A stretch of DNA of 64,000 nucleotides from Candidatus Berkelbacteria bacterium (GTDB lineage Bacteria > Patescibacteriota > UBA1384 > JACPKC01). The stretch lies in assembly GCA_016187225.1 (NCBI GenBank), contig JACPKC010000010.1:3541-67540 (forward strand). Reading direction: 5' to 3'. The position numbers and the translations under genes are program-made. Below the pieces are notes generated by a model. The model was not told the DNA's origin. It worked only from the letters and a program-made list of their open reading frames with translations, and made no database searches. Below are positions 30,518 to 33,569 of this stretch, piece after piece (within the stretch, counting starts at the first letter, position 1; each line of letters opens with the position of its first letter).

Positions 30518-32075
30518 CGCAGTTAGTGAGGTTCGAATGACCCACGAGGGTTAATAGAAGCAAAAAGCGTATGCAGATTTGCAAACGATGCAACTGCATC
30601 GTTTTTGTTTGTTACAACGGGCTTCGACTTTGAACTTTGATAATTGACGCCAGCATAACTTGGTTTTTGAATTGGTTGAAAAATGAGCCTCGCCGGTTTT
30701 AGACCGGCCGCCACTGCGAGCGTTATCGCAGATATTTGAAGTTTCAAACTTCTCTTTTTGAAGAGTTTGATCCTGGCTCAGGATGAACGCTGGCGGTGCG
30801 CCTAACACATGCAAGTCGAGTGGGTTTAGACCCACGGCAGACGGGTGAGTAATGGCAAGGAACGTACCACGAGGTCGGGCATAACCCGCCGAAAGGCGGG
30901 ATAATTCCCGATACGCCTCCGGGTGAAAGTTTTTCGCCTCGTGAGCGGCCTTGCTCCTATCAGCTTGTTGGTAAGGTAACGGCTTACCAAGGCTCTGACG
31001 GGTAGCTGGTCTGAGAGGACGACCAGCCACAATGGCACTGAGACACGGGCCATACTCCTACGGGAGGCAGCAGTTGGGAATATTGGACAATGGGCGAAAG
31101 CCTGATCCAGCGACACCGCGTGGAGGAAGACGGTCTTCGGATTGTAAACTCCTTTTCTCTGAGACGATTATGACGGTACCAGAGGAATAAGCACCGGCTA
31201 ACTACGTGCCAGAAGCCTCGGTGATACGTAGGGTGCAAGCGTTATCCGGAATTATTGGGCGTAAAGAGCTCGTAGGTGGCTTTGTTCGTTCCGTGTTAAA
31301 TCTCCAGGCTCAACTTGGAGGCCGCACGGAAGACAGCAAAGCTCGAGTCCAGCAGGGGTCAGCGGAATTGGCGGTGTAGCAGTGAAATGCGTTGATATCG
31401 CCAGGAACACCGATGGCGAAGGCAGCTGACTAGGCTGGTACTGACACTAAGGAGCGAAAGCGTGGGGAGCGAACAGGATTAGATACCCTGGTAGTCCACG
31501 CCGTAAACGTTGCTGACTAGGTATTCGAAGTATCGACCCTTTGTGTACCGAAGCTAACGCGTCAAGTCAGCCGCCTGGGAAGTACGGCCGCAAGGCTAAA
31601 ACTCAAAGGAATTGACGGGGGCTCGCACAAGCGGTGGAGCATGTGGTTTAATTCGATGATAAGCGAGGAACCTTACCAAGATTTGACATCTCCGGAACCC
31701 TGCAGAAACGCGGGGGTGCCCTTCGGGGAGCCGGATGACAGGTGATGCACGGTCGTCGTCAGCTCGTGTCGTGAGATGTACGGTTAAGTCCGCAAACGAG
31801 CGAAACCCTCATCCTGTGTTGTATTTCACGGGAGACTGCCTCGTTCAACGGGGAGGAAGGTGGGGATGACGCCAGATCAGCGTGTCTCTTACATCTTGGG
31901 CGACACACGTGCTACAATGGCGACAACAGCGGGTCGCAAAGCTGTAAAGCAGAGCTAATCCCTTAAATGTCGCCTCAGTTCGGATTGAGGGCTGAAACTC
32001 GCCCTCATGAAGCCGGAATCGCTAGTAAACGCAGATCAGCCATGCTGCGTTGAATACGTTCTCGAGCCTTGTACA

Positions 32076-32618
32076 AAATAGAATGCGCCATTCCTTGTCA
32101 GTGGCGAGTCCGTTCAAATCGGACCTGGCCGCCAGAGACGGTCAGAAGCGAACGCGCAGTCCTGCGGAGCGATCCACAGGGTGAAGGGTGCTAGTAGCAG
32201 TATCCAGCTTGAATTTTATAAACGGCGTGATCGGTGGACGATCCTGCGTACAATTGGAGAAGTCATCTCTGTATTTTTCCGGTCGCGTATTTGGAATCGA
32301 GATGGATGCGAATTGCACTGACAAGACAATGGGAGAGCTTATAGACTCCTCTATGTGTATTCACGTGGGGGTAGATTCATCGTAAGATGGTATCGATGGG
32401 CTATAAGCAGTCTGCAGAGTCCATAGTACCCGGAGTCTCAACAGTTGTTGAGATCGAAGGGGAAGGGACTAATCCAGCCATAAAAGGATGGAGGAACTCA
32501 AACAGTTGTGCGAACAGATTGAGTTCCTTCGGGGCTAGAGCTTCGCTAGGGTACGGGAAAACCGTGTGCCCAGCGGCGACGGAACTCATGGTAGTAATGC
32601 CTGTGCAGTATCCGGGAA
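32076..32618 (+). mobile_element. ORF-less intron-like insertion in the 16S rRNA (after the CCTTGTACA block)
   Basis: About 540 nt separate ...ccttgtaca from ...caccgcccgtcac, which are contiguous in canonical 16S. The boundaries are approximate. Confidence 0.7.
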
Positions 32619-32708
32619 CACCGCCCGTCACGTGAGCCGAGTTGGTAATACCCAAAGTCCCACTTTTGTGGGCCGACGGTAGGATCAGTAAGGAGCACGA
32701 AGTCGTAA

Positions 32709-33430
32709 AATTGTTGCGACCTTGCTAGGTAACCGGCAAGAAAAACCCTGCTGTATCGGTGAAACCCCTCCTCTCTAGTAGAATAAAGATGTGAGGACAA
32801 TACCGAGGGAACCCATGCCTTCAATGGGACTCCGTAGAGACTACACGCAGGCTCCTTTGCAGGAGATTGAATCGTATCTCGTTGGCGCAAGTCACGATGG
32901 TACTTGGAATCAGCGTCACAAGACTTTTCGCTATACACAGCGAGAACGCTCTTGGCTTGAGCTGGTTCAGCGGCTACTCGGTAGCCTGAACAGACGGAGT
33001 TGGCTGTACCGTGAAGGTCAACAACGCACCGTCTGGGCACTAGAAACGACATATTGTCCTTCAGGTGACTCGTGGCACTTATTGCCACATAGTCAAATAG
33101 AATGGATTGGGTACATTCGTGGTTTCTTTGATGCTGAAGGTGGCTTACCGAAGAATGCGACAAGTCGGTTTTATTTACAATTTGTACAGAAGAACCGCAG
33201 GAAGCTCGATATAATTCGCTCGACTTTGGAGGAGTTGGACATCCCATGTGGAGCCCTTCATATACCCAGTAAGCGAGTTGATCCAAATTATTGGCGCTTT
33301 TTCGTCTCGACACGGTCACATCGAAAGTTCGCCGACGTAATTGGATCTTGGCATCCACGCAAGTCGTACATTCTCTCTGGAAGGATGAAGATATAGTCCA
33401 TGCCCTGTAGTAATATTGGGAACACCATGA
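32709..33430 (+). mobile_element. Intron in the 16S rRNA 3' region carrying a LAGLIDADG homing-endonuclease ORF
   Basis: About 720 nt are inserted between gaagtcgtaa and acaaggtatccctagggg. The boundaries are approximate. Confidence 0.75.
32791..33396 (+). CDS. LAGLIDADG homing endonuclease (intron-encoded)
   Basis: The 201-aa ORF lies inside the 16S insertion. The segment IGYIRGFFDAEGG matches the LAGLIDADG motif. Confidence 0.7.
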   Translation: MRTIPREPMPSMGLRRDYTQAPLQEIESYLVGASHDGTWNQRHKTFRYTQRERSWLELVQRLLGSLNRRSWLYREGQQRTVWALETTYCPSGDSWHLLPHSQIEWIGYIRGFFDAEGGLPKNATSRFYLQFVQKNRRKLDIIRSTLEELDIPCGALHIPSKRVDPNYWRFFVSTRSHRKFADVIGSWHPRKSYILSGRMKI

Positions 33431-33569
33431 ACAAGGTATCCCTAGGGGAATCTGGGGATGGATCACCTCCTTTCTAACGGAATTTTGAGAGCTTTGCTCT
33501 CGACCGTAGGTCGGTCTCATTTTTCAACCATTCAGCAACCAAGAGTCGTCCGGAGGGACGATTTTTGGT

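Follow-up and report, generated by a model that had tools for sequence, protein, structure and literature searches.

The 16S rRNA gene of a Candidatus Berkelbacteria bacterium, found in a 64,000-nucleotide (nt) stretch of contig JACPKC010000010.1 (assembly GCA_016187225.1), is interrupted by two insertions near its 3' end. This stretch is referred to as the window, and all positions are counted from its first letter. The gene, of which the window contains a single copy, lies on the plus strand, as do all intron features given below, and extends from 30755 to about 33476. We estimate a probability of roughly 85% that it is transcribed into a precursor of about 2.7 kb, in which two unrelated self-splicing ribozymes flank an 89-nt exon consisting of helix 44. 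Insert 1 (32075..32617, 543 nt, at E. coli positions 1395/1396) is a group II-like intron of IIC type without an open reading frame (ORF), and is a member of the described rns-1396 / 16IS9 family. Insert 2 (32707..33429, 723 nt, after U1498) is identified from its sequence as a group I intron (Rfam RF00028), and carries a gene for a LAGLIDADG_3 homing endonuclease. That both inserts are spliced out is proposed from their structure together with published transcript data on other bacteria of the Candidate Phyla Radiation (CPR).

The Rfam model of the small subunit (SSU) rRNA, RF00177, matches the plus strand from 30755 with 1340.7 bits. Its colinearity ends after CCTTGTACA, the alignment breaking past ...GCCUUGUACA at 32075, and the '3' end' that the model reports at 32119 is a misalignment of the model terminus forced into insert 1. 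The lost pieces of the 16S were found downstream by reading, CACCGCCCGTCAC...GAAGTCGT at 32619-32706 and AACAAGGTATCCCTAGGGGAATCTGGGGATGGATCACCTCCTTTCT at 33430-33476. The E. coli rrs reference copy used was locus L001. A BLAST search of the 3' region against E. coli aligned exon 1 only, and a global alignment was needed for the colinearity of exons 2 and 3. In this alignment the joined exons are colinear with rrs over the whole 3' domain, reading ...CCTTGTACACACCGCCCGTCAC...GAAGTCGTAACAAGGTA...GGATCACCTCCTT. Exon 1 (30755..32074, 1320 nt) corresponds to E. coli positions 1 to 1395, ends in the intron-binding site 1 (IBS1) UUGUAC (32069-32074), and shares 89.5% identity with the Berkelbacteria locus L005 over 627 nt. 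Exon 2 (32618..32706, 89 nt, E. coli 1396-1498) is essentially helix 44 together with the decoding-centre strand, and exon 3 (33430..33476, 47 nt, E. coli 1499 to the 3' end) comprises helix 45 and the anti-Shine-Dalgarno CCUCC. The exons sum to 1320 + 89 + 47 = 1456 nt; a preliminary description of this DNA, made from the letters alone, had estimated about 1.45 kb, and its insert sizes likewise agree with the measured 543 and 723 nt.

Two related loci show what the sites look like when empty. L005 is from another Berkelbacteria metagenome-assembled genome (MAG), and L130 encodes an endonuclease homologue with 74% identity, the nearest one that is not identical. L130 reads ...GCCTTGTACACACCGCCCGTC... 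without insert 1, yet carries insert 2, and L005 reads ...AAGTCGTAACAAGGTATCC... without insert 2, yet carries an insertion at the site of insert 1; exon 2 is contiguous with both flanks in L130 and L005. Since these flanks restore the canonical 16S exactly, both inserts are discrete and independently present or absent. Two insertions near the 16S 3' end, at the sites first described, are thereby confirmed by the SSU break, the global alignment to E. coli rrs and the empty-site alleles.

The sites lie in the decoding-centre strand and at the junction of helices 44 and 45. Both inserts must be precisely removed, because the gene is the sole 16S copy seen and the sites are in the most conserved part of the SSU. 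It is for the same positions that we regard retention of the inserts in the mature rRNA, as expansion segments, as extremely improbable. Against such retention also speak the complete ribozyme architectures with covariation in both inserts, described below, and the close relatives that lack one or the other insert with the canonical sequence exactly restored. As far as the cited work is represented in PMC11270868, insertions in CPR rRNA are removed from transcripts (Brown et al.), and published CPR metatranscriptomes are without such insertions.

Insert 1 matches two Rfam models of group II introns, group-II-D1D4-3 (RF02001) at 32163-32316 with 35.0 bits (threshold 32) and group-II-D1D4-1 (RF01998) at 32372-32468 with 39.9 bits (threshold 35). 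Its ribozyme parts are about 80% identical to the ORF-bearing intron of L005. A consensus fold of domains I-III, calculated with RNAalifold from 6 relatives, contains 113 pairs, of which 69 show compensatory changes. In the alignment of the relatives the insert begins with an 8-nt 5'-terminal linker, AAAAUAGA, followed by AUGCG as the counterpart of the canonical GUGYG (together 32075..32087). The linker is purine-rich in insert 1 and differs in sequence among the relatives (AAAACAGA, AAGAAAGU, AAGAAAAA, AUUCUAAU), with a conserved (A/U)UGCGCC after it. The same arrangement is seen in the Thiotrichaceae / Ca. Thiomargarita nelsonii loci L006, L008, L048 and L075 (AAAUAA-AUGCGCC).

The exon-binding site 1 (EBS1), GUACAA at 32248..32253, is located in an 11-nt hairpin loop of domain I and pairs with the exon bases 32069-32074 (UUGUAC). 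The closing stem of the hairpin, UCC/GGA, is invariant across relatives, while exon and EBS1 change together: UUGUAC/GUACAA in the window, UUGCAC/GUGCAG in L134 and GCACAC/GUGUGC in L141, where the intron is placed two bases further on. Domain V (34 nt, 32543..32576) has the CGC triad at 32544-32546, a 3' bulge GU at 32566-32567, a GAAAA loop and an extra bulged A at 32548. Its helix is paired in 100% of 6 sequences, with a compensatory change from U-A to C-G at 32547/32572 (alignment A1). Domain VI (32580..32614) is capped by a GUAA tetraloop, carries its bulged A at position 32610, and is followed by the tail GGA (32615-32617). The bulged A32610 is invariant, and 10 of 12 pairs of this domain are compensatory (A1). 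In domains V and VI together, over the six CPR-type copies, 97.3% of positions are paired with 11 compensatory pairs, and neither slid registers nor any of 500 shuffles reach that value. Because the helices continue to undergo compensatory evolution, the ribozyme of insert 1 appears to be still under selection.

The junctions can be placed more exactly than by colinearity. For insert 1, an A duplicated at the junction causes a 1-nt ambiguity, so that 32075-32617 and 32076-32618 are both allowed. The 5' splice site is assigned after C1395 (32074/32075) because EBS1 pairs and covaries with the bases ending there, and the intron consequently ends at 32617 with its bulged A at -8. The Thiotrichaceae copy, the ends of which are unambiguous, has an equal spacing of the bulged A. 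The exact register of insert 1, 1395 versus 1396, is thus deduced from sequence comparison. For insert 2, the break may be set by colinearity after GTCGT, GTCGTA or GTCGTAA (a 2-nt AA ambiguity), and the limits 32707-33429 follow from the group I rules of a U before the 5' splice site and a G as the last intron base. The most likely splice junctions are therefore between C1395 and A and between U1498 and A, which is one to two bases upstream of the breaks in the preliminary description; its sites were otherwise right. A 5' splice site directly before AUGCG, leaving the linker in the rRNA, was considered and rejected: it would add 8 nt to the universally conserved decoding-centre strand, and it also disagrees with EBS1 pairing and covarying with the bases that end at C1395.

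The missing ORF of insert 1 can be accounted for. Its counterpart at the identical site in L005 is 911 nt long and contains a 176-aa LAGLIDADG_1 ORF in domain IV, and relatives L005, L131, L133 and L134 have intact LAGLIDADG_1 ORFs of 163-196 aa. Loci L131/132, L133/136 and L134/135, all with intact ORFs, were recovered by means of the L005 protein. The difference of 368 nt between 911 and 543 nt appears in the alignment as a clean internal deletion. At the deletion junction, about 32481/32482, ...GGGGAAGGGACUAAUCCAGCCAU runs directly into the last 18 codons of the ORF, and these codons with the stop (KRMEELKQLCEQIEFLRG, 32482..32538) now form the domain IV hairpin. The remnant was aligned on the end of the L005 ORF, which terminates in ...KGMEELIRLREQIAELRG and a stop. 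Upstream, an 82-aa frame (32387-32635) has its first 33 residues 52% identical to the N-terminus of the L005 endonuclease, and the C-terminal 18 codons are in another frame than this N-terminal remnant. The 82-aa frame has no Pfam match. Compared at the sequence level, these frames are remnants and not a gene, and the ORF-less state traces to a specific 368-nt deletion of the intron's own LAGLIDADG_1 gene. The first insert had been described as without an ORF; this holds as regards a gene, though the 82-aa frame and the 18-codon endonuclease remnant are present. Of an intron-encoded protein, either a reverse transcriptase (RT)/maturase or a LAGLIDADG_1 protein in domain IV, insert 1 has remnants only.

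Insert 2 shows the secondary structure of a group I intron. P1 (32702-32708/32714-32720) pairs GUCGU/AA, the slash marking the splice site here and below, with UUGCGAC, has the wobble U32706·G32716, and is invariant in 6 relatives. P2 (32721-32740) has a GUAA loop and covaries. P3 (32747-32751/32847-32851) shows 100% pairing and compensatory changes in 4 of 5 pairs, and is followed by P4 (32756-32761/32801-32806) and P6 (32812-32828). P7 (32839-32843/33394-33398) is formed by the R element GUAGAGACUACA and the S element AAGAUAUAGUCC, as read from the sequence, and its pairing GACUA/UAGUC is invariant. P8 (32854-32858/33380-33384) and P9 (33403-33420) covary, as does P9.0 (33400-33402/33426-33428, AUG/CAU in the window), which occurs as AUG/CAU, ACG/CGU and AA/UU. 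The last intron base, 33429, is the omega-G, and P10 pairs GUU at 32713-32715 with the first 3' exon bases AAC at 33430-33432. In alignment A2 the core of P1, P2, P3, P7, P8, P9.0 and P9 is 93.5% paired, with 20 of 41 pairs compensatory, and this pairing is matched neither by shuffles (0/500) nor by slid registers. Of the defining features of group I introns, the P1 U·G wobble, the omega-G with P9.0 and P10, and the P3-P8 core including the P3/P7 pseudoknot are found. Five relatives, L130 and L137-L140, carry a group I intron at the identical site.

A LAGLIDADG ORF of 201 aa in the second insert had been noticed from the start, and it was identified as a LAGLIDADG_3 gene by a match to Pfam PF14528 (E = 4e-11, 43.5 bits against a cut-off of 22.5). 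It runs from GTG 32791 to 33396, where relatives have ATG at the position of this GTG; an alternative start, ATG 32815, would give 193 aa. There are 217 homologues, more than 200 of them similar in length, and the best, HYW32_02925 on a 320-kb contig of a Candidatus Berkelbacteria MAG, is 100% identical, which bears out the earlier assignment to a CPR-type host. The single motif, YIRGFFDAEGG, is kept, and so are all 54 columns that are invariant among 8 homologues. In a sequence search of the PDB with the LAGLIDADG_3 protein no relative was detectable. The ORF starts in the 3' strand of P5, passes through P4', P6, P7 and P3', and takes up the loop of P8. Its first 20 codons or so overlap P5'-P4'-P6-P7-P3', the UAG stop lies within the 3' strand of P7, and the conserved C-terminus, RMKI and the stop, is dictated by the S element. 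The product is most likely a homing endonuclease that is active as a homodimer. The predicted target, i.e. the intron-less sequence of the second site, is CACTAAGTCGTAACAAGGTATCC, which in L005 reads …CACTAAGTCGTAACAAGGTATCCGT…. Among CPR enzymes, cleavage has been tested only for a different one, I-ShaI, of the LAGLIDADG_1 type (PMC11270868).

Ribozyme architecture backed by covariation in both inserts upholds the intron nature that the preliminary description had assumed. Of the covariance models named there as a check, that of SSU rRNA showed the break at insert 1 and that of group I introns matched insert 2 below its gathering score; insert 1 turned out to be group II-like and not group I.

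Several points weigh against two self-splicing introns. Splicing at this locus is predicted from DNA sequence. For insert 2, RF00028 aligns over its full length (32697-33420, E = 3.6e-9). Its 43.0 bits fall short of the gathering score of 50, because the ORF of about 520 nt is treated as one long insert in P8. For insert 1, the Rfam domain V/VI model RF00029 gives no match at E <= 1, and domain V has the extra bulged A and a pentaloop replacing the GNRA tetraloop. The canonical group II ends (5' GUGYG, 3' AY) are replaced by a linker with AUGCG at the start and GA at the end; such boundaries depart from the general group II definition and not from that of the rns-1396 family, for which the linker is a stated trait. 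In the fungal relatives, introns with a 5' linker have mostly lost the branch-point A (PMC4424553), whereas insert 1 keeps its bulged A, and the splicing chemistry is uncertain because linker and conserved bulged A coexist. Finally, the loss of the intron-encoded protein could matter if this protein also served as a maturase.

Some of these points would also fit a decayed group II relic that is excised by host RNases such as RNase III, leaving a 16S fragmented at 1395/1396: the intron-encoded protein is deleted, both ends are non-canonical with RF00029 failing to match, and bacterial 23S rRNA is known to have intervening sequences that RNase III processes, a possibility also considered for CPR (PMC11270868). 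We judge this unlikely. Every helix of domains I-III, V and VI is kept by compensatory changes relative to ORF-bearing relatives about 20% divergent, which is unexpected for a relic, and EBS1 is still perfectly complementary to the exon. The non-canonical ends are common to all family members, even those with intact ORFs, and a break in the universally conserved decoding-centre strand would be unprecedented.

The proposed mechanism for two self-splicing introns starts from the observed boundaries, homology, structural covariation, ORF loss and presence/absence polymorphism among relatives; the chemistry of insert 1 (branching versus hydrolysis) and the endonuclease activity are extrapolated from these. 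In the group II-like RNA, EBS1 (GUACAA) would pair with the last six exon bases (UUGUAC) and guide 5' cleavage. Domain V would be the catalytic centre, and the first attack would come from the bulged A32610 (branching) or from water (hydrolysis). In the group I RNA, exogenous guanosine bound at P7 would attack at U32706, using the U·G of P1, and the exons would be ligated via omega-G33429 and P10 (AAC/GUU). The ligated 16S would then read UUGUACACACCGCCC...GAAGUCGUAACAAGG, with a first junction of UUGUAC-ACACCGCC. The LAGLIDADG_3 enzyme, presumably a homodimer, would cut the intron-less 16S at AAGTCGT/AACAAGG (here the slash marks the cut) and so lead to homing. The patchy occurrence of the group I intron among relatives is attributed to its endonuclease. 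Insert 1 should now be immobile because its endonuclease is lost; after the 368-nt deletion it would be a splicing-competent yet immobile survivor, kept since an imprecise loss would wreck the decoding centre.

Introns of both kinds have been described before from CPR bacteria and giant sulfur bacteria, and our findings fit the published categories. The rns-1396 (S1396) introns have a IIC backbone, a single-motif LAGLIDADG ORF in domain IV, a 5' terminal linker in all members and no EBS2, and were reported from Thiotrichaceae only (Liu et al. 2026, PMC13190283). The intron of the Thiomargarita / Thiotrichaceae 16S is also credited to Salman et al. 2012, as cited in later papers. Insert 1 shares with this family the 16S insertion region, the 5' linker with AUGCGCC, the CGC triad of domain V, the bulged A at -8 in domain VI and the lack of EBS2 and of a reverse transcriptase, and its relatives have the single-motif LAGLIDADG_1 ORF. 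It differs in its CPR host, which is not a gammaproteobacterium, in the deleted ORF, in ending in GA and not AU, in the extra bulged A and GAAAA loop of domain V, and in a domain I that is only distantly alignable. Moreover, EBS1 of insert 1 pairs with positions 1390-1395 and that of rns-1396 with 1392-1396, so that the junction of insert 1 is probably one base upstream.

In CPR 16S genes, 53 group II-like insertions have been reported, all at about position 1400 (16IS9), of which 39 have a LAGLIDADG_1 ORF and the other 14 lack an annotated one (Tsurumaki et al. 2024, PMC11270868). Insert 1 agrees with these in host group, site and Rfam-based detection, and fits the ORF-less class. That paper gives no structure or splice-site analysis, whereas here the deletion is traced and the registers are derived from EBS1 covariation. 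It also counts 35 group I introns that carry LAGLIDADG_3, located at 16IS5 and 16IS10; the group I introns of 16IS10 have LAGLIDADG_2 or LAGLIDADG_3 ORFs, and LAGLIDADG_3 occurs among 16S insertions only. Insert 2 resembles the 16IS10 introns and the Thiotrichaceae S1495 intron in its group I core with R and S elements, its ORF in a peripheral loop and its location in the 3'-most part of the 16S. The Thiotrichaceae intron of L006 is placed after U1495 (GAAGU/U...G/CGUAACAAGG), which is 3 nt upstream of the site of insert 2 and has another guide sequence, and its ORF region is not intact, unlike that of insert 2. This intron spans 2640-3205 of L006 and has the P/Q/R/S core in common with that of the window; its interior is AT-rich, no long frame was noticed on reading, and it apparently lacks an intact endonuclease ORF.

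Introns that splice upstream of GUGYG have precedents in C.te.I1 and in the rRNA introns of fungal mitochondria (PMC4424553). The fungal IIB1 introns with 5' insertions and LAGLIDADG ORFs (Li et al. 2011 and Toor & Zimmerly 2002, as far as reviewed in PMC4424553) are like insert 1 in residing in rRNA genes, splicing upstream of GUGYG and lacking EBS2, and like its family in having LAGLIDADG in place of RT ORFs. They differ in their backbone (IIB1 versus IIC-like), in being organellar, and in that the branch-point A is usually lost, where here it is conserved.

Further copies were collected by pattern scans. A scan of genome contigs with the pattern GAATACGTTCNNGNGCCTTGTACAD returned 8 loci, the exon part being too strict, of which L005, L006, L008 and the Thiotrichaceae context were useful. 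A scan of metagenomes with the short pattern GCCTTGTACAN{3,9}AATGCGCC returned mostly unrelated protein-coding sequence, and L048 and L075 were real among the matches listed. Relatives carry either intron alone, both, or versions with and without the ORF, and L141-L143 are ORF-less relatives of the group II-like intron. Three registers are deduced: after C1395 with an 8-nt linker (the window, L005, L131, L133, L134), after C1397 without a linker (L141-L143), and after A1396 (Thiotrichaceae). The rns-1396 family thus extends into the CPR, uses at least three registers (1395, 1396, 1397) and is not confined to Thiotrichaceae, contrary to the 2026 survey (PMC13190283).

One reading of these registers, which we offer tentatively and to which we give somewhat less than even odds, is that the CPR branch of the family was retargeted within the ACACAC stretch of the decoding centre through changes of EBS1. 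If so, the '5' linker' would be a by-product of a shifted exon-binding register and not a degenerate feature, and ORF-less copies such as insert 1 would be fully active ribozymes that selection on the single-copy rRNA gene keeps in place. Around helix 44, CPR and giant sulfur bacteria alike carry a pair of homologous introns, one group II and one group I, and such pairing in both lineages would point to horizontal exchange of both elements.

The occurrence of these pairs in other organisms also bears on the assembly. The window comes from a metagenome-assembled genome, and rRNA regions are prone to misassembly, so a chimera joining 16S fragments and mobile elements of different organisms has to be weighed. 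We consider the chance of this to be minute, as the same two intron families are found at the same sites in independent assemblies from other samples (L141-L143, L138, L139), L141-L143 also share the downstream synteny with ClpB, and the exons flanking each insert join into one colinear 16S. Neither the chimera nor the relic nor the expansion segments have positive support.

The contigs of the relatives show some additional features. The group II-like copy of L141 (1351-1833, also in L142 and L143) is an ORF-less copy of 483 nt after C1397 (…UUGCACAC/UGGCGCC…); it has no 5' linker, and its EBS1, GUGUGC, fits the shifted exon. All three loci also hold a group I intron after U1498. L138, a contig of 432 kb, has at about 1900-2330 a short intron of the Thiotrichaceae type that is probably ORF-less; its 5' splice site, TTGTACA/AAATAAATGCGCC, lies about 415 nt before CACCGCCC. 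Domain V of this intron is CGCTGGATGCG, and the contig also has a group I/LAGLIDADG_3 intron after U1498. From this combination, the two group II sub-lineages may not be strictly host-bound. In two of the intron-bearing 16S genes an endonuclease ORF is located further upstream, LAGLIDADG_3-like in L131 (1102-1749) and LAGLIDADG_2 in L134 (367-960), and these are additional introns at other 16S sites.

The locus provides a clean natural example of the life cycle of homing endonucleases in a bacterial rRNA gene, one intron keeping its endonuclease and the other having lost it while retaining a ribozyme supported by covariation. New here are the class of insert 1, the origin of its ORF-less state, the refined junctions and the reach of the family into the CPR; the current understanding is unchanged, and known catalogues are extended. 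Both introns lie within the target sites of the universal primers 1392R/1406 and 1492R. With introns in primer sites and rRNA models truncating at 32119, organisms such as the host of the window are missed or mis-annotated in 16S surveys.

The rRNA genes of the window are one 16S, one 23S and one 5S, and they do not form a compact operon. The 23S is interrupted as well. In its region (42883-47519) the Rfam model of the large subunit rRNA stops matching at 45532, and the 5S begins at 47519. Along the conserved stretch ...GGGATAACAGGCTGAT...TTTGGCACCT, colinearity is lost at about 45495. The gap contains a LAGLIDADG_2 ORF (45490-46206, E = 3.4e-36), a LAGLIDADG_1 ORF (46532-47077, E = 7.5e-12) and a weak group I match (46390-47162, 25 bits). 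The segment 33570-42880 separates the 16S from the 23S. It includes a ClpB-like AAA+ gene of 866 aa (34393-36993), tRNA genes with the anticodons GAU (Ile, 37430-37503) and UGC (Ala, 39125-39197), a 160-aa ORF without a Pfam match, and several ORFs of 150-260 aa. The order 16S, small ORF, ClpB is found again in L141-L143.

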